A stretch of DNA of 53,876 nt, from contig CAVRZU010000183.1 of the NCBI GenBank assembly GCA_963725365.1, positions 1 through 53,876 on the forward strand. Reading direction: 5' to 3'. The stretch comes from an uncultured delta proteobacterium (lineage in GTDB: Bacteria > Desulfobacterota > Syntrophobacteria > Syntrophobacterales > Syntrophobacteraceae). Under the pieces are notes generated by a model. That model had not been told where the DNA came from. It made no database searches and was given only the letters and a program-made list of their open reading frames with translations. The translations under genes and the position numbers were made by a program. Below are positions 27,721 to 37,630 of this stretch, one piece after another (position 1 is the stretch's first letter; each line of letters opens with the position of its first letter).

Positions 27721-27945
27721 TCAGCACCCTGACAGGTCCTCAAGGACATCTTCAAGACGCAACTTCGGCTCGTGTGTCCGCTCCTCGAACGCGGATAGCT
27801 CCTCGGCATCTTCTTCAAGCTTTAACCTGACGGCCTCATTGACCAGATCGGAAATGGTGCGGTTTGACTCCGCCGCCTTAAGCATGAGAGCCCGATGAAG
27901 TTCGGAATCCAGATAAATTGTGGCTCGCTTCTGTGTCGTTTTCAT
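27721..27945 (-). CDS. Ribbon-helix-helix (CopG-like) antitoxin-type protein, no partner toxin
   Basis: RATIYLDSELHRALMLKAAESNRTISDLVNEAV is a typical RHH N-terminus. No toxin ORF lies downstream. Confidence 0.6.
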   Translation of the reverse strand: MKTTQKRATIYLDSELHRALMLKAAESNRTISDLVNEAVRLKLEEDAEELSAFEERTHEPKLRLEDVLEDLSGC

Positions 27946-28468: not shown

Positions 28469-29503
28469 GTGATTCTCGTACTTGAAAAAGGCGTAACGCA
28501 GCAACAAGTGGAAAGACTCAAAGATTTACTTCGTTCCGAGGGCCATATGGTGAAAGAAATAGGTGGCGTGGAGGAACAGGTACTGGGAATTGTAGGCAAG
28601 ATGTACAGGGAGAGCTCGTATTATGGAGCGTTGCCCGGAGTCGAAAGGGCCGTGCCCATATCCAAGCCCTACAAGCTGGTGAGCCGGGAACTCCATCCCG
28701 CTGCATCCATCATTAAGGTCGGAGACGTCACAATAGGAGGAGACCGTCTGGTGGTAATTGCGGGTCCATGCGGCGTTGAGGACAGGAAAACAACGATGGA
28801 CATTGCCCGCGTCGTTCGTAAACACGGGGCGGTGCTTTTCCGGGGCGGGGCATTCAAACCGAGGACCTCGCCTTATGCCTTCCAGGGCCTGGGGGAGGAA
28901 GGGCTGAAGATACTCAGTGAGGTAAGGCAGGAAACAGGGCTTGGAATAGTTACGGAAATGACCTCCCCGAGCCAGGCCGACCTGATGATGAAATACGTCG
29001 ATGTCGTTCAGATCGGTGCCAGGAATATGCAAAATTTCGAACTGCTGAAGTCTGTCGGCCGAATAGGCAAGCCGGTGCTTTTGAAGCGGGGGTTGTCGGC
29101 GACTATCGAGGAATGGCTCATGTCCGCCGAGTATATTCTCTCGGAAGGAAACGACCAGGTGATCCTGTGCGAGCGAGGGATTCGCACGTTCGAGCGCTAC
29201 ACGCGAAACACCCTGGACCTTACTGCTGTTCCGGTCATAAAGAAGCTTACTCACCTGCCGATCATAGTGGACCCGAGCCATGCCACGGGAATCAGGGCAA
29301 AAGTGAGTCCCATGGCCCGAGCCTCCATAGCCGCAGGCGCCGACGGCCTCATAATCGAGGTGCACACCCAACCGGAAAAAGCACTGTCCGACGGCCCCCA
29401 GAGCCTCTATCCGGAACAATTCGAACAGTTGATGAGAGATCTTTACGCAATTGCTCCCGTTGTTGGAAAGCAGGTCGATTTTGCTTACCTGGACAAAGCA
29501 ACG
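28469..29503 (+). CDS. aroF: DAHP synthase, type I-beta, with an N-terminal ferredoxin-like/ACT regulatory domain
   Basis: Contains [57 protein letters not shown] and [10 protein letters not shown]. There is no stop codon before the pheA-like part. Confidence 0.85.
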
Positions 29504-29506
29504 ATC

Positions 29507-30365
29507 ATGACGCGGCCCAGGGGCGAGAGCAAAGCGCCCGCGACTGTTGTCTACAGCAGAGTTGCCGGTTCCTTTTCCCACAAGGCATGCATGCAGTTTT
29601 TCGGCAATGAGGTCCCCTGCGCAACAGTTCCTCATTCAGAGAAGTCTTCACCCTTGTGGACAGCGAACAGGCGGCCTTCGGCGTCGTGCCCGTCGAAAAC
29701 AGCCTTACGGGCAGCATCCATGAGAACTACGACCTGCTCCTGGAATATGACTTGAAAATCGTCGGTGAGTTGACCCTGAGGATCAAACACAATCTCCTGG
29801 GACATCCAAATGCTCCAATAGATGGTTTGGAAAAAATCTACTCCCATCCCCAGGCTTTTCAGCAGTGCAGAGAATATCTGGAAAAAAATCCCGTCTGGGA
29901 CCTGGTGGCGTGCAAAGATACCGCCACTGCTGTCCTGCGGGTCAAAGACGGCGCAGATCCCAAAGAAGCCGCAATAGCCGGTGAAGGCGCCGATCAGGTT
30001 GCGGGGATGGCGATCCTCAAAGAAGGCATAGAGACCAATCCGAGGAATTTCACCCGCTTTGTGGTTATATCCAGGAATGAATCGCTTCCAGGCCCTCAGA
30101 ACAAATCCTCGCTTATCTATTCGGTAAGCGATAAGCCGGGGCTTTGTTCGAGACCCTCGGGATCTTTTCGCGATACGATATAAACATCGTCAAAATCGAA
30201 TCGAGGCCGATTCACAGCAGGCCCTGGGAGTATATGTTTTATGTGGACCTGGAAACCGATATAACCGAAGAGAGCCGGAAGCATATCCTGGCTGAATTGA
30301 CAGAGAAGACAGAATTTTCCAAGTTCCTCGGAAGTTATAACAAGGGCGCCCGGGCCAATCCTTAA
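29507..30365 (+). CDS. pheA: Prephenate dehydratase with C-terminal ACT domain, with frameshifts near 29630 and 30140
   Basis: Contains VVYSRVAGSFSHKA, FGVVPVENSLTGSIHENYDLL, IYSHPQAFQQC, TNPRNFTRFVVI and the ACT part DKPG(A)LFETLGIFSRYDINIVKIESRP. Confidence 0.8.
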
Positions 30366-30396: not shown

Positions 30397-30686
30397 TTAA
30401 GCAGCGTTTTTCCTGAGAACGGCAATCGTTGCGCCCCAGCCGCCGTGCGTCGAACGCCCGCTTCCCGGAACGAAATCACCAGCGGGTGGCTCTTCAGGAC
30501 CCCATGGACCAGTCGGCGAAGGACCCCGATGCCCTTTCCGTGGATGATTCGAACCTCGTCGAAACCCTTTTCAACGGCTGCTTCGAGGTAGTCGTTGAGA
30601 AGGTCCTTCACTTCGTTGGGCCTGAATGTATGGAGGTCGATCGAGTCTTCGATGGGTAAGCGGACTATATCCTCTTCTTCTTTCAT
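30397..30686 (-). CDS. Smr-domain protein, with a frameshift near 30455
   Basis: Contains IDLHTFRPNEVKDLLNDYLEAAVEKGFDEVRIIHGKGIGVLRRLVHGVLKSHPLVISF. The expected end GGWGATIAVLRKNAA* is in the adjacent frame. Confidence 0.7.
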
Positions 30687-30877
30687 GGGGCAAAGGGTCC
30701 TTTTCGAATGATGAATGACGAATGATGAGAGAGCCGGTTCCTTATTCCGCATTCATCATTCCTCATTCATCGCTGTTTTTCAAAGAATGTTCTGGAAATT
30801 TCAGTCGAATTCTGTTTTGAATACCTCGCGGCATCGGATATCGTCAGTCCGAAAATTATGTAAGAGGAAACAATTCA

Positions 30878-31495
30878 ATGCTTACAAATCTGGTATCGTG
30901 TTTCGCAATTTCATGCCTGCATGCTTCGGGGTATTTCGGGGCCGCATTCCTGATGGCCCTCGAGAGCATGATAGCTCCTGTTCCGAGTGAAGCTGTAATG
31001 CCTTTTGTCGGCTTTATGGTCGTCGATGGCCAATGGAACCTCTGGGCCGCCATCCTCGCAACCAGCACCGGTTCGGTTGTCGGGTCCGCAATATCTTATG
31101 CGATGGGCTACTATGGAGGGAAGCCGTTTGTATTGAAAGTCGGCAGGTATCTGTTGCTCAATCCGCATGATCTGGAGAGGACAGAGGATTTCTTCAGACG
31201 CCGGAAGGGGACTATTACCCTTTTCATCTGCCGGTTTATACCTGTGGTGCGCCATCTCGTCTCGGTCACGGCAGGAACGGGCAAGATGGGGCTCCTGCCC
31301 TTCCTTCTTGCGACTCTTTTCGGTGCGACGCTGTGGAATTCTTTTCTCCTCGTATGCGGAATGTACCTTCGTGAAAGGTGGGAACTTGTCCTGCAATACT
31401 CCCATGAGGTCGATATAGTGGTAGTAGTTGTCCTTCTTGCCGGGTTGGCGTTTTTTGTGAAATCCCGCTATAGAGTAGCGAAGAGTGAAGGGTGA
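30878..31495 (+). CDS. DedA-family inner-membrane protein
   Basis: Contains LESMIAPVPSEAVMPFVGFM and ICRFIPVVRHLVSVTAG. Confidence 0.8.
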   Translation: MLTNLVSCFAISCLHASGYFGAAFLMALESMIAPVPSEAVMPFVGFMVVDGQWNLWAAILATSTGSVVGSAISYAMGYYGGKPFVLKVGRYLLLNPHDLERTEDFFRRRKGTITLFICRFIPVVRHLVSVTAGTGKMGLLPFLLATLFGATLWNSFLLVCGMYLRERWELVLQYSHEVDIVVVVVLLAGLAFFVKSRYRVAKSEG

Positions 31496-31583
31496 GGTAA
31501 AAAGTGAACTGGTACAGGAGCGTAAATTGACTAATTGCAGACTCCTAATTTTATGTTGGGCGGTTCAGCCGTAGGGAGGAATT

Positions 31584-32672
31584 ATGAGCGAATCGGACAA
31601 GTCGAAAGTCTTACCCTACGCCGAGCTGTTGGCGTCAAGCACATCAAGCCCACTCGTTTTCATTAGTCATGATGCGCGAGACGCTGAGCTTGCTGAAGCG
31701 TTCAGCAAGCTGCTAAGGAGCGTCAGCGCCGGAATGATCAAGACATTTAGGTCTTCCGACAAGAAAGGCAACGAGGGCATTGACTTCGGCGAAGAGTGGT
31801 ACAAACGCTTGATGGCGCAGCTTCAGTCCACTTCGGATGTGGTGTGTCTCTTCACTGAGCGCAGCCTCGAGCGACCGTGGATTCTGTTCGAGGCAGGCGT
31901 GGCCAAGGGAAAGCTGAATACTCCTGTCGCTGGGGTAGCGCTCGGCGTCCCCCTCAGCCGTGTGAGCGCCGGTCCGTTCTATCAGTTCATGAACATGGAC
32001 GACAGTGAGGGCGACCTCACAAAGCTGGTCAATCAGCTTGCCCGACGAATCCCAAACTTGGAACTCGACAGCGATGTAGTCAAAACTCAAGTGGCAGCTT
32101 TCAAGGCGACGGAGGCCACGCTCCTGAAGAAGCTGACGTCTGGCAGCGCCAAGCCCGCAACGAAAGAGGATGTGGACGAGACTGCCATTGCAAAGCTAGC
32201 TGAGGAAATGAAAGCTCTGCCGTCACGCGTAGCAGAACGACTGGCCGAAAGCGGCGCCCCCATTAGCCGACGGAGAATGCGCCGTTTCAGCCCGATGATG
32301 TTCGATGATATCATGCATATGCAGGGCGATCTGGGTGATCCGATCTCCATCCTCATTGCGGCTAGCGTAGTCCGTGATGACATGCCATGGCTATACGAAC
32401 TGGCTATGGAGGTATACAGGGCTGTCAGAGCAGGAAATGCAGAAGCTATCCATGTCGAGATGATAAGACTACGTAACTACTCCGATATGATGATGCAAGG
32501 CCCTTTGGTAGAAGCGTTGGGCTTCAGCGACAAGGAGTATCATATGTTCGCAATGGAGTTTCCCAGAATGCTTGAGCATATGTTGAGGCGCATTCTTGAT
32601 ATGAAGATGAAGACCAACTCTACCAAAAGGCGAAAGTCCTCTAGCGCTGCCGGAGGACTCGCAGAGGATTGA
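31584..32672 (+). CDS. TIR-like domain protein with an unassigned roughly 190-aa helical C-terminal domain
   Basis: The N-terminus has LVFISHDARDAELAEAFSKLL (beta-A FISH-type motif) and DVVCLFTERSLERPWILFEAG (W-x3-E motif carrying the candidate catalytic Glu). I recognise no motif in the C-terminus. Confidence 0.65.
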   Translation: MSESDKSKVLPYAELLASSTSSPLVFISHDARDAELAEAFSKLLRSVSAGMIKTFRSSDKKGNEGIDFGEEWYKRLMAQLQSTSDVVCLFTERSLERPWILFEAGVAKGKLNTPVAGVALGVPLSRVSAGPFYQFMNMDDSEGDLTKLVNQLARRIPNLELDSDVVKTQVAAFKATEATLLKKLTSGSAKPATKEDVDETAIAKLAEEMKALPSRVAERLAESGAPISRRRMRRFSPMMFDDIMHMQGDLGDPISILIAASVVRDDMPWLYELAMEVYRAVRAGNAEAIHVEMIRLRNYSDMMMQGPLVEALGFSDKEYHMFAMEFPRMLEHMLRRILDMKMKTNSTKRRKSSSAAGGLAED

Positions 32673-32772
32673 CATCTCCGGGAATATACGAAAATCTCCC
32701 CATTGTAAACCGATTAGTGGCCCGGATAGTTATCAGGGCGACCCGCGTCGAGGACGATCTGAGCGGCGGGCG

Positions 32773-33168
32773 CTATCCCCGTGTGGATCGAATGATTGAC
32801 TTGCTCTTAAGCCAGTCCGAAAACCCGGCCTCATCCATTTCGCCCGTCGCCAAGGCCAACACAGCGGTCACTGTTTCGGCTTCCGGCGCCATCAGTTCCC
32901 ATCCATTGAGATCAAGAAAAACATAAGCAGCAAGAAAACCTGTGCGTTTGTTGCCGTCCACGAAAGGATGGTTTCGAATGATGCCGAAAGCGTAGGCGGC
33001 GGCAAGATCAAACACGGATGACCGGCCATAGGCCGCTTGGTTTTGCGGACGGGCAAGGGCTGATGACAACAATCCTGCGTCACGGATGCCGGGATTTCCG
33101 CCATGCGCTGCCATCTGCTCGTCGTGCATGGCAATAACAACCCCCTCCAGAAGCCAGCGCCACGTCAC
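32773..33168 (-). CDS. doc: Doc (death-on-curing) Fic-family toxin
   Basis: HPFVDGNKRTG is the Doc-type Fic motif. The 131-aa ORF has a GTG start that overlaps the antitoxin stop by 4 nt (GTGA). Confidence 0.85.
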   Translation of the reverse strand: MTWRWLLEGVVIAMHDEQMAAHGGNPGIRDAGLLSSALARPQNQAAYGRSSVFDLAAAYAFGIIRNHPFVDGNKRTGFLAAYVFLDLNGWELMAPEAETVTAVLALATGEMDEAGFSDWLKSKSIIRSTRG

Positions 33169-33389
33169 TTCCCGGCAAGCTCGCGCAGAGCATTGCGGTA
33201 TTTGGACATTCCGCGCTGCGCCACTTTCATTTGTGCTTCAAATTCCGGATCGTAGGGCGTGATGGCATAACCGTCAGGCATTTCCGTTAAGAATAGGCTG
33301 TCGCCTTTCTTCACCTTGAGACGCGCGGCAGCTTCCTTCGGCAGGATAAGGCCGGTAGAGTTGCCAATCTGTGTTACCTTGACCCGCAT
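33165..33389 (-). CDS. AbrB/MazE/SpoVT-fold antitoxin partner of Doc
   Basis: MRVKVTQIGNSTGLILPKEAAARLKVKKGDSLFL is a typical swapped-hairpin barrel N-terminus. It is translationally coupled to doc. Confidence 0.8.
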   Translation of the reverse strand: MRVKVTQIGNSTGLILPKEAAARLKVKKGDSLFLTEMPDGYAITPYDPEFEAQMKVAQRGMSKYRNALRELAGK

Positions 33390-33405
33390 TGATCTATCTC
33401 CTTTT

Positions 33406-33425
33406 GTTATAACCTATATTATAAC
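33406..33425. promoter_or_regulatory. Possible operator / -10 region of the antitoxin-doc operon
   Basis: GTTATAAC-ctat-ATTATAAC lies 17 nt upstream of the antitoxin start. On the minus strand it contains TATAAT. Confidence 0.3.
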
Positions 33426-33533
33426 GCAGGCCGCTGCTCCGTCAAGCCGCATCAGGATGCTTCTACAACCTTTTGAAACAGCAGGAAGAAGCCGCCTTTC
33501 ATTAAGCAAGGCATAAACCGGTCAATGTGAATT

Positions 33534-35485
33534 TCAATCTTCCTGTTCCTCCAGGATCTCCCCGCCTTCCGCTTTGGAAAGCACGCTGATGACGCTCTGC
33601 GCCACCTTTTGAGGAAGGCCGGCGCTTTCCAGTTCGAAGACCGAGGCAGCCTGGATTGCATCCAGGCTGCCGAATCGTTGAAGAAGCATCTGTCTTCTGC
33701 CGGGGCCTATTCCTGGAATGCCGTCCAACGCCGATGTGAGCAGCGAGTTCCTGTGTACGTTCTGGTAATGGGTGATAGCAAAGCGGTGCGCCTCGTCGCG
33801 TATTCGCTGGAGCAAGTGCAAAATGTCCGGATAACGGTGCAGAAAAAGGGGGTTCTTTGTCCGGGCAGATAGATTTTCTCATAGAGCCCCTTTCCTTTGT
33901 CTCCAATTTCCCATTCCTGTCCTTGGCAATTGAGGCGACCGGGAGCGTATCGGAAATTTCGAGCTGATCGAGCAGAGCCACGTATTTGTTCAACTGGCCC
34001 TTTCCTCCGTCAAGAAGAAGCAGATCGAGCTTTGAGGTAAGTTCCGGGTCGTTTTCAATCAGCCTGCCTATTACCTCCGCCATCATCGCCGGGTCGTCTG
34101 GTTCACTCTTCAGTCTTATCCGGTAGCGCCTGTAGGAATTCTTGTCCGGCCGTCCACTTTCAAAAACAACTACCGCCCCGACCGCGTGCTGCCCCTGGAT
34201 ATTGGAGATGTCCACGCAGGCGATTCGCTCCGGCGTCTCTCGGCAATTTGAGGAGACGCCCAAGACTTTCGATCAGGGCTCTGTCCAGCTTCTGCCACCG
34301 CCTGCGGCTGCCGGATCTCTCGCGGGCGTTGGTCAGGGCCATATCGAGCAGGTGCTTCCTGCCGCCTCTCATTGCCGCCCAGATCCTCACCCGTTTTCCC
34401 TTCATATCGGATAGCCATTCCGAGAGGACCGTTTCGGAATCGAGCGAAACGGGAACTATCACCTCATCGGGTATGAATGCGCCTTGATAGTAGTATTGCT
34501 GAATGAAGGATGAGATCAGCTCACGATCTTCCCCCTTGGCCTCCTTGAGGTCGAATGTTCTCTGGCCGGAATGCACTCCCTGCCTGATAAATAGAACCAC
34601 CAGTTCGGTTCGGTCTTCCTCCTGGTAGATCCCGAGCACGTCCTGGTCCCGGAAGCGGTCGGATATGACATGCTGCTTTTCGATCGTTGCCGCGACATTT
34701 CGCAGACGGTCGCGGTAAAAGGCCGCCAATTCGAAATGCTGTGCCTGGGCGGCTTCCTGCATTCTTTGCTTGAGCTGTCTCTGGAGGGTGTCGGTTTTTC
34801 CTTGCAGAAAGAGCACCACTTCCTCGACCATCTTCATGTAGTCTTCCCGGGAAACTTTGCCTGCACAGGCGCCAAGGCACTGCCCCATCGAAAAATTGAG
34901 ACATGGACGGTCCCGGGGCAGGAGTTTTTTGCCCTTGCAAAGCCTCAAGGGGAAAAGCTGATGAAGGTATTTGAGCGTGTCGCGGGCCGCGCGAGCCGAG
35001 GTATAGGGCCCGAAGTAGAGCGCTCCGTCCTTTTGAAAGCGCCGCACTATGTCCAGCCTGGGATAGGGGTCGCGCGAGTCGATCCGGATCGAGAGATAAT
35101 TTTTATCATCGCGAAGCACCACGTTGTAGCGCGGGCGGTGTTTTTTGATGAGGCTGGCCTCGAGGAGGAGCGCCTCTTTTTCCGAAGATGTAACAGCGTA
35201 TTCGAGGTCGGCGGCCTTGGCGAGCATGATCCTGGTCTTGGCGTCTATGGCCTCGCCACTGCGGAAATAATTGCCGATCCTTTTCCTGAGGTCCCGGGCC
35301 TTTCCGATGTAAAGTATTCCGCCGCTCGTATCCCTGAACATATATATTCCCGGCAGATGCGGAAATGCGGATATCCGGCCTGCAAGATCTCCCGGGCCGG
35401 CGGACTCGGAAGCAGCGGTCCGGGACGAGCCGTCTGTCTCAAGTCCCGCTGCCCCGTCCTGGTTTTCGCCTTCAAGTTCAAGCAT
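33534..35485 (-). CDS. uvrC: Excinuclease ABC subunit C, with frameshifts near 34200 and 33850
   Basis: GIY-YIG domain (GIYMFRDTSGGILYIGKARDLRKRIGNYF), a UvrBC-interaction region, and the C-terminal RIRDEAHRFAITHY plus (HhH)2 motif LDGIPGIGPGRRQMLLQRFGS. Confidence 0.9.
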
Positions 35486-35618
35486 TGACGTCCGTTTCTT
35501 TCAGATCCGATACGGTATTGCGTTCAAACTAATTAGTGTCCATCCGGAAACCCAGGATGTGACACTTACAGTTTCCAATTCGGAAAGGAGGCATTTTTCG
35601 TCATGGCAAGGAAATCGA

Positions 35619-35743
35619 GGGTTTGCGCGGAGGCGTACTTGGGTCGGCCCTCGCCACGCCCCATAAGCATCGGAGGAGCGTGGAACCATGTTCGACCCAT
35701 ATAGCCGGGACCCCGTGAGGGGGTACGCCGCACAAGCAAACCC
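35619..35743 (+). ncRNA. Candidate structured RNA / cis-regulatory element, class unknown
   Basis: Five nested, fully Watson-Crick helices: 35619-26/35736-43 (8 bp), 35632-38/35723-29 (7 bp), 35641-46/35693-98 (6 bp), 35654-59/35678-83 (6 bp), and 35711-14/35719-22 capped by a GTGA (GNRA) loop. Confidence 0.35.
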
Positions 35744-36016
35744 GAAGATTGACGACGCCAAGGCGGAAAAGAACCCTTTCCGGATGGAAACTAATTATAG
35801 CACAGAAGCCCCGGTCTGCCATAATTGCAGCACATTTGAACTGCGCTCAGCCGCGCTTCCCCAAGTAAAGGTGGAGGCGAATTTTATTCACTTGCGCGAT
35901 GATACGTACACCTTTTAATCCCCTTTTTGCTTGATATTTATCGTTCTTTTCCTCCCCTCGCCATTATTGAGTGCCTGATGACCATCGGGCCATTATCTTC
36001 ATAACAGGAGATCAAT

Positions 36017-37206: not shown

Positions 37207-37369
37207 AAATAAATAAAAACCTGCAACTTTTAAACTGCGGTGCCTTCTTTCTTGCAGGAGGAGGCAAATGTCCTGAGTGATCCGAAAAGAATATTCCCTG
37301 AATTGGCTTGCAACCTTGCTCTTTCGGTGTTATCAAAAATTGATAAACACGAATAACGGAGGTTTAGCC

Positions 37370-37630
37370 ATGCCATCAAGTTACGCCATAGGCTCTCATT
37401 TCGAGCGCTTCATAAAGCAGAAAATCGAAAGTGGGCGCTACAGCAGCGCAAGCGAAGTTATCCGCGACGCCTTGCGTCTGTTGGAAGAGCACGAAGAATT
37501 GCGGGAAGTGCAAATCAAAACCCTCCGCCAGCAGCTTCAAGAGGGCAGAGAAAGCGGCCCCGGCATTTCGGCCGACAAGGTTTTGGATCGGCTTGAAGCA
37601 AAATACAGTAAGCTCACAACCGAACCCTGA
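37370..37630 (+). CDS. parD: ParD-family (RHH) antitoxin
   Basis: Contains MPSSYAIGSHFERFIKQKIESGRYSSASEVIRDALRLLEEHE. Confidence 0.75.
   Translation: MPSSYAIGSHFERFIKQKIESGRYSSASEVIRDALRLLEEHEELREVQIKTLRQQLQEGRESGPGISADKVLDRLEAKYSKLTTEP

Follow-up and report, generated by a model that had tools for sequence, protein, structure and literature searches.

Immunity in bacteria, plants, and animals relies centrally on TIR enzymes, and how they are switched on depends on the domain that accompanies them. The systems closest to the one considered here act as single proteins: SpbK, from the Bacillus subtilis element ICEBs1 (PDB 9phb), is a TIR NADase that works by abortive infection and is activated by binding a phage portal protein (PMC11984713), and Escherichia coli TIR-II, TIR-V and TIR-VI as well as TIR-IX protect against phage by abortive infection and need their TIR active-site residue to do so (PMC11350192). 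Here we describe a gene of this general kind in a 53,876-nucleotide stretch of DNA from an uncultured delta proteobacterium of the Syntrophobacteraceae (contig CAVRZU010000183.1, positions 1 to 53,876 of the forward strand; hereafter the window). It is an intact open reading frame (ORF) of 362 amino acids (31584-32672, forward strand), preceded by a GGGAGG ribosome-binding site, that joins an N-terminal TIR domain to a helical C-terminal domain. We put at roughly 0.55 the probability that it encodes a soluble stand-alone TIR enzyme acting as a single-protein, abortive-infection (anti-phage) NADase, with its C-terminal domain in a sensing or regulating role. Like SpbK, it combines a TIR and a non-TIR domain in one gene with no partner, and a profile of its family aligns to the SpbK TIR domain; the two differ in domain order, which is reversed in SpbK, where the TIR domain is C-terminal, and in their non-TIR domains, which are unrelated. 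SpbK also resides on a conjugative element, whereas the family of the window protein is chromosomal, with no recognisable vehicle. The E. coli systems are likewise stand-alone TIR proteins, but are either short and TIR-only or combine TIR with TPR or ATPase domains and, compared by description, none is reported with the C-terminal domain found here. A preliminary description of the locus had proposed an uncharacterised single-gene TIR abortive-infection system; the single gene and the C-terminal domain without relatives hold up, while single-gene TIR defence as such was already established. What is new is the conserved C-terminal module, the breadth of phyla, and the degree of conservation.

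The N-terminus is a genuine TIR domain with a glutamate at the catalytic position, by profile, fold, and motif evidence. It spans residues 23-160 (31650-32063, forward strand) and comprises five beta-alpha units. The strings LVFISHDARD and DVVCLFTERSLERPWILFEAG, on which the preliminary description based its reading of a bacterial TIR-like N-terminus with the glutamate of TIR NADases, both occur in the ORF exactly as quoted. Pfam TIR_2 (PF13676) is matched in 92 of the 92 family members scanned (E<=0.01; best 7.8e-8), and several relatives score above its cut-off (P0370 with 32.6 bits, P0363 with 36.6 bits, and the copy on the viral contig L083 with 34.4 bits). Three PADLOC models match the window protein itself, namely TIR-TM (E=1.2e-10), ThsB (2.4e-5), and SpbK (6.7e-5). 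An AlphaFold2 (AF2) model, built on an alignment of 92 sequences whose members are 46-80% identical, has a mean pLDDT of 81 and places five beta-alpha units across residues 24-153; with the Foldseek results, it describes the five-stranded parallel beta-alpha fold of TIR domains. The top 14 Foldseek matches in the PDB are all TIR domains (probability 1.0, E ~2e-3), with target-normalised TM-scores of 0.56-0.66 against isolated TIR domains. They include SPARTA TIR-APAZ, a Bacillus cereus TIR protein, RUN1, EcThsB, and L6, with the TIR domains of SARM1 and BtpA further down the list. Nucleoside 2-deoxyribosyltransferase-like folds (MilB, DNPH1) and flavodoxin-like folds rank below TIR, and a Foldseek search of viral structures returned only TIR or nucleoside 2-deoxyribosyltransferase-like folds. 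When the family profile is compared with PDB sequences, RPWILYE aligns with RPWVKYE of EcThsB and FISHD with FISHS of SpbK, and E103 aligns with the glutamate of EcThsB RPWVKYE and of SpbK LNEMG. S94, R97, P98, W99, and E103 are invariant across the 92 diverse members. Because of these alignments and this invariance, E103 (codon at 31890-31892) is taken to occupy the glutamate position of the W-x-x-x-E motif that follows strand C, here W99-x-x-x-E103. In SARM1 and other TIR NADases, the glutamate of this motif is the catalytic residue.

Between the TIR domain and the C-terminal domain lies a linker (residues 161-236; 32064-32291, forward strand), delimited from AF2 secondary structure, pLDDT, and alignments, in which a long helix (163-189) is confidently predicted. 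The linker also has a variable, acidic stretch, an EEMK..LP helix that is conserved, and the basic segment RRRMRRF; the last two of these fall within residues 191-231, which are of low confidence in the model. A reading of RRRMRRFH as a HEPN motif was rejected: its histidine is serine in the window protein and aspartate, asparagine, or tyrosine in others, and the segment is predicted to be disordered. The C-terminal domain (residues 237-355; 32292-32648, forward strand) carries the hallmark HPMM ... DD-x-PW-x-YE ... Y and is predicted to form a six-helix bundle (pLDDT 84-97). The preliminary description had noted helical sequence with no recognised motif, and indeed the region is predicted to be all-helical and no Pfam family covers the C-terminal half in any of the 92 members, apart from weak DUF7547 noise in seven. 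A profile of the domain found only coiled-coil noise among PDB sequences, and Foldseek gave a best E of 0.57, a weak test because its input was a poor shallow-alignment model with only the helical half confidently folded. No transmembrane segment is present in the window protein (highest 19-residue Kyte-Doolittle mean 1.19).

The domain is widespread. Residues ~194-343, searched against 1.84 billion cluster representatives, match 422 clusters (defined at 50% identity) at E<=1e-3 and 168 at E<=1e-10, most of them with the same TIR and helical architecture or fragments thereof. In P0363 it is joined to a distinctly different TIR_2 N-terminus (36.6 bits), the first 189 residues of this protein matching PADLOC TIR-TM at 4e-54 (positions 1-197 of 293), and in P0362 to a third TIR-like N-terminus (PADLOC 'Effector TIR' 5e-9; phrog_3634 1.8e-51). 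P237, L257, P268, W269, Y271, E272, and Y278 are invariant or nearly so across these subfamilies. Being fused to several TIR-type N-termini, the C-terminal domain is therefore an independent module repeatedly paired with TIR-type enzymes, a modularity typical of immune proteins. A 311-amino-acid protein encoded at another family locus (L034, 11134-12066) has a P0362-like TIR-like N-terminus (AFVIMPF ... LVLADVT-x-x-NPNVFYELG) and, in place of the PW-x-YE domain, a different C-terminal half, so that the N- and C-terminal modules are shuffled independently. Among described models the nearest is PADLOC TIR-TM (PDLC03016), together with the phage family phrog_13899: the TIR domain and long linker helix are homologous to those of the window protein (positions 36-198 of 293 in TIR-TM; E=1.9e-11 for phrog_13899), and P0363 belongs to a sister subfamily of the window family. 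They differ in that the last ~95 profile positions of TIR-TM, membrane-spanning to judge by the model's name, are unmatched in the window protein, which has a soluble helical bundle instead; in P0363 the C-terminal domain sits where the C-terminal part of the TIR-TM model would be. We could not trace the publication behind the name 'TIR-TM' in the literature. Apart from the generic TIR part, none of PADLOC (2023), Pfam, NCBIfam, and PHROGs has a model dedicated to the family, and our literature search found no paper describing it.

The family is large, with thousands of sequences from soil and sediment bacteria that are mostly uncultured. Searching by sequence gave 2,561 homologues, the top 120 of which are all 331-391 amino acids long and 70-100% identical, and a profile of divergent members returned 3,540; homologues share an architecture of ~355 amino acids across at least 15 phyla. 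We took 80 genome loci (44-84% identity) from contigs representing one genome per species. They fall in Acidobacteriota, Alpha-, Beta-, Gamma-, and Deltaproteobacteria, Nitrospirota, Planctomycetota, Verrucomicrobiota, Actinomycetota, Chloroflexota, Ignavibacteriota, Armatimonadota, Sumerlaeota, Krumholzibacteriota, Hydrogenedentota, Rhodothermales, and one Woesearchaeota bin. Cultured carriers, which offer direct experimental handles, are Noviluteimonas lactosilytica A6, Dyella humi DHG40, and Paludibaculum fermentans. Homologues 70-84% identical to the window protein occur in unrelated phyla, and the phylogeny of the family conflicts with taxonomy. Comparison of the window gene with its closest relatives shows synonymous sites close to saturation (pS 0.47-0.86) but a pN of only 0.025-0.078 in the TIR domain; dN/dS is 0.01-0.055 in the TIR domain, where calculable, and ~0.1-0.2 in the C-terminal domain. 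Amino-acid identity in the TIR domain is ~95% across phyla. Saturated synonymous sites together with low pN imply that this conservation reflects strong constraint rather than recent spread and, as judged from these substitution patterns, the gene is clearly functional and under very strong purifying selection. Eight copies in the family (L022, L043, L051, L061, L064, L068, L069, and L072) are split or truncated by frameshifts; some may be true pseudogenes, which would be relevant to the cost of the gene, and others may be long-read assembly errors.

No conserved partner gene accompanies the family. When ORFs within 5 kb were clustered across the 80 loci, no recurrent neighbour emerged: the largest cluster was present at 7 of 80 loci, in variable positions and on both strands. 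Nor is there a sign of a small hidden partner, since conservation of six-frame peptides (at least 25 amino acids, within 400 bp on either side) extends no further than three closely related genomes, and at the nucleotide level the window resembles other loci only over the ORF and at most 29 bp upstream. The TIR gene is thus a single-gene unit, in agreement with its earlier description as solitary. An integron cassette or transposon was rejected, as there is no attC-like site, no terminal inverted or direct repeat, no tRNA in the window, and no recurring neighbour integrase; an RNA element was likewise rejected, with no Rfam match at E<=1 in 30500-34000. A contig 99.8% identical to the window (L081), whose gene table reaches ~10 kb upstream and 6.6 kb downstream of the TIR gene, contains no ThsA, SIR2, STING, cyclase, or NLR-type gene, as the preliminary description had observed of the immediate surroundings. 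By sequence profile the closest solved TIR domain is that of Thoeris ThsB (EcThsB, PDB 8wcf; E=0.017), which shares the RPW-x-x-YE motif and is also among the top structural matches. ThsB, in contrast, works with a linked ThsA and lacks the 200-residue helical extension, whereas no ThsA effector (SIR2-SLOG or Macro-TM) is present in the L081 table or recurs in the 80 loci. The locus does not resemble CBASS or Pycsar, having no cyclase neighbour and a C-terminal domain without a Pfam match to SAVED, STING, or cNMP-binding domains, nor SPARTA, as the TIR-APAZ match spans only the TIR part (~160-170 columns) and there is no Argonaute neighbour.

The 150 immediate neighbours of the family gene are mostly ordinary metabolic and envelope genes, among which are three ThsB_TIR genes, two TIR_2 genes, a single DNA methylase, and a single integrase. 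A minority of loci are nonetheless clear defence clusters. At L034, the family gene is found with NotI, a Fic protein, a ThsB-like TIR and caspase pair, and another TIR-like gene; at L004, such a pair lies directly downstream of it; at L046, a second TIR gene lies 12 bp downstream; and in Paludibaculum, an Mrr-like nuclease lies downstream and a PIN/Phd pair upstream. In L083, one of two matches in IMG/VR, the gene stands beside a CI-like repressor, DUF2971, Mrr_cat (an Mrr-like nuclease), and Bro-N. This is a prophage lysogeny region, where prophage-borne defence genes usually reside. In one Acidobacteriota lineage the gene is flanked by DJ-1/PfpI and by a gene without annotation, and the whole region is one of housekeeping genes. 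A defence-island setting is thus plain at only a minority of loci. The TIR and caspase pair is an observation in its own right: in two unrelated genomes (L004, a Nitrospira metagenome-assembled genome, 7428-8795; L034, a metagenome-derived chromosome, 8383-9912), the family gene directly adjoins a pair of genes for a small ThsB-like TIR protein (138-183 amino acids) and, after it, a caspase-domain (Peptidase_C14) protein, and the pair looks like a TIR-plus-caspase defence module of its own.

The history of the locus can be read by comparison with Syntrophobacter sp. SbD1 (L095), to which the host is a close relative since their UvrC proteins are 98% identical. SbD1 has the same gene order as the window (K+ channel, uvrC, dedA, Smr, DAHP synthase/prephenate dehydratase), but its uvrC-dedA gap is 231 bp and holds neither the TIR gene nor the toxin-antitoxin (TA) pair that lies beside it in the window. 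That pair consists of a Doc toxin (32773-33168, reverse strand; 131 amino acids; Pfam Fic E=2.8e-19, NCBIfam DOC_P1 E=4.3e-20) and an antitoxin of AbrB/MazE fold (33165-33389, reverse strand; 74 amino acids; NCBIfam doc_partner E=4.5e-20, Pfam MazE_antitoxin E=4.5e-7), which overlap by 4 bp in the manner of a Doc/antidote type II TA module. Pfam and NCBIfam thus confirm the AbrB-type antitoxin/Doc module, convergent with the TIR gene and between dedA and uvrC, that the preliminary description had reported. In a blastn alignment of the window with SbD1, homology stops at 31478, returns at 32744-32781, and returns again at 33457. The TIR insert begins with 31479-31583 (forward strand), which has no SbD1 counterpart and includes the last 17 nt of dedA and the ribosome-binding site, and ends with 32673-32743 (forward strand), which is non-coding, again without an SbD1 counterpart, and has no Rfam match. 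It is followed by 38 bp of the ancestral dedA-uvrC intergenic region (32744-32781, 97% identical to L095 8070-8033) and then by a separate TA insert (32782-33456, reverse strand), which is absent from SbD1 and holds Doc, the antitoxin, and their own promoter. Because these 38 bp of ancestral DNA, contiguous in SbD1, lie between the two inserts, the insertions were independent: a 1,265-bp TIR segment (31479-32743) replaced ~140 bp that included a hairpin, and a 675-bp TA cassette (32782-33456) was inserted separately. More distant relatives carry other genes at this position, and this, with the absence of both inserts from SbD1, makes the dedA-uvrC gap a variable insertion spot, as the preliminary description had surmised in calling it a small hotspot. 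The TIR gene is an accessory gene of patchy distribution.

How might such a protein act? SpbK, in which binding of a phage protein by the non-TIR domain switches on NAD+ cleavage, provides the working model, and the mechanism proposed here is drawn by analogy to it and to the one-protein TIR systems of E. coli. At rest, the TIR domain, with E103 as the catalytic glutamate, would be held inactive. The C-terminal bundle with its PW-x-YE hallmark would detect a cue of infection, possibly with help from the long helix of the linker and from its basic RRRxRRF segment, and this would lead to TIR-TIR assembly or to release of the TIR domain. The assembled TIR domains would then cleave NAD+, and with NAD+ depleted the infected cell would stop growing and the infection would be aborted. 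The NADase activity, the phage trigger, the sensor role of the C-terminal domain, and the oligomerisation are all presumed in this scheme. If the family is indeed an anti-phage NADase, it would add a new sensor module, with no known relative, to the TIR toolkit and be a common defence gene in environments whose phage defence is poorly charted.

Several observations weigh against an anti-phage NADase, and they leave the evidence for an immune role suggestive, not strong. The case for the family is built from sequence and predicted structure. The window protein itself scores just under the Pfam gathering threshold for TIR_2 (E=2.1e-5; 25.4 bits, below the 28-bit cut-off), and a sensor role for a C-terminal domain without an assignable fold is a guess. 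A promoter scan upstream of the TIR gene found no consensus sigma-70 site and no convincing promoter, only a weak TTGACT-like candidate within 31479-31583. Housekeeping genes are the neighbours at most loci, and only ~10 of the 150 immediate neighbours match any PADLOC model. Sequenced phages, plasmids, and IMG/VR hold almost no copies of the family, which is represented there by one partial, unannotated copy on a Ralstonia megaplasmid and the two IMG/VR contigs. Finally, conservation of the TIR domain far exceeds what immune proteins usually show, and the tight conservation of an apparent immune gene is a puzzle. One possible resolution, which we hold only tentatively and think unlikely to be correct, is that the PW-x-YE bundle is a previously undescribed sensor or regulatory module, used on at least three TIR types, in a family that, as its near-frozen TIR domain could suggest, does not sense fast-evolving phage proteins, but guards a conserved cellular process, binds a conserved small molecule, or makes a specific nucleotide product. 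Such a family would represent a mode of TIR immunity or signalling distinct from the direct sensing of phage proteins by SpbK.

The same observations could be read as signs of a non-immune accessory enzyme for metabolic or regulatory processing of NAD(P) or nucleotides, for example in dormancy or stress of soil bacteria; the helical domain would then be the binding site of an endogenous ligand. Mostly housekeeping neighbours, near-absence from phages and plasmids, and very strong purifying selection with ~95% TIR identity across phyla, atypical of genes in an arms race, would all be expected of such an enzyme, and the nucleoside 2-deoxyribosyltransferase fold of MilB and DNPH1 is also found by Foldseek. 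We nevertheless regard it as an improbable account: the gene is patchily distributed and absent from a 98%-related genome, its phylogeny is discordant with taxonomy, its C-terminal domain is shuffled among TIR-type N-termini, several loci are defence-gene clusters or a prophage moron region, and the TIR_2 and ThsB profiles outscore other families. That the TIR label is itself mistaken, and that the N-terminus is a flavodoxin-like or nucleoside 2-deoxyribosyltransferase-like domain, is very unlikely. The sub-threshold Pfam score, the modest Foldseek E (~2e-3), and the presence of flavodoxin-like, MilB, and DNPH1 folds lower in the list would fit such an error, yet all 14 top structural matches are TIR domains, TIR_2 is found in every member scanned and exceeds its cut-off in the relatives P0370 and L083, the PADLOC ThsB, SpbK, and TIR-TM models match the window protein, and the W-x-x-x-E motif aligns to EcThsB. 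The preliminary description had allowed for placement in a non-TIR, flavodoxin-like family; both profile and Foldseek searches place the N-terminus among TIR domains.

Rather than killing through bulk depletion of NAD+, the TIR domain could signal to an unlinked effector by making a messenger (a cADPR isomer or a molecule of His-ADPR type), or it could act on another substrate by cleaving or cyclising nucleic acids or nucleotides; the closest relatives in sequence and structure include ThsB proteins, themselves signal producers, ThsB-like TIR genes neighbour the family gene at a few loci, the extreme conservation of the TIR domain would fit a product read by a conserved receptor, and the conserved basic RRRxRRF segment could bind nucleic acid. 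The window, however, has no linked receptor of ThsA, SLOG, Macro, SAVED, or STING type, nor does one recur across the 80 loci, and a signal producer without a linked effector would be unusual for a horizontally moving defence gene, which makes these alternatives, in our judgement, quite unlikely. Least credible is a composite system formed by the TIR gene and the Doc/antitoxin pair, a combination raised in the preliminary description that does not survive comparison with other loci. The TIR gene and the pair do lie next to each other and converge in the window, defence islands do contain TA modules and Fic/Doc proteins, and at L034 a larger Fic protein is encoded two genes upstream of the family member, but no Doc or antitoxin homologue is found within 10 kb of the family gene at any of 82 loci (80 genome and 2 viral-contig loci), the 38 bp of ancestral DNA between the inserts point to separate events, and the TA cassette has its own strong promoter (TTGACG-16-TATAAT, 33445-33418; scan score 11/12). 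On this evidence the TIR gene and the Doc pair are unrelated.

Other features of the window provide context. The TIR segment is flanked on the left by dedA (30878-31495, forward strand; Pfam VTT_dom E=1.3e-21), syntenic with SbD1, and the TA cassette on the right by uvrC (33502-35485, reverse strand), whose Pfam domains fall on two ORFs because of a frameshift in the window; uvrC is intact, at 650 amino acids, in L081 and SbD1. A fusion of DAHP synthase and prephenate dehydratase (28469-30365) is broken as well, the two genes being split into two or three ORFs in the window. The fusion is intact (632 amino acids) in SbD1 and shortened (446 amino acids) in L081, and the breaks in both genes are most likely assembly indels rather than true pseudogenes. 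Just upstream of the antitoxin start, inside the TA insert (33390-33456), a palindromic TTATAACCTATATTATAA accompanies the TTGACG-16-TATAAT promoter, and together they are probably the autoregulated operator of the Doc module. Two further small antitoxin-like genes occur at 27721-27945 (reverse strand) and 37277-37630 (forward strand), one for a ribbon-helix-helix protein (RH3_dom) and the other of ParD type, with no toxin gene recognised beside either; remnants of TA modules are thus plentiful in this part of the genome. In the interval from uvrC to the K+ channel gene (36017), 21-nt inverted repeats, TAATTAGTGTCCATCCGGAAA and TTTCCGGATGGAAACTAATTA, at 35530-35797 enclose 226 nt in the window versus 100 nt in SbD1 (L095 5815-5956). 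Relative to its flanks, the inner piece is in opposite orientations in the window and SbD1, and the window has ~116 extra nt inside it; the segment is a candidate invertible DNA element and could be either a phase-variable promoter or a small inversion polymorphism.

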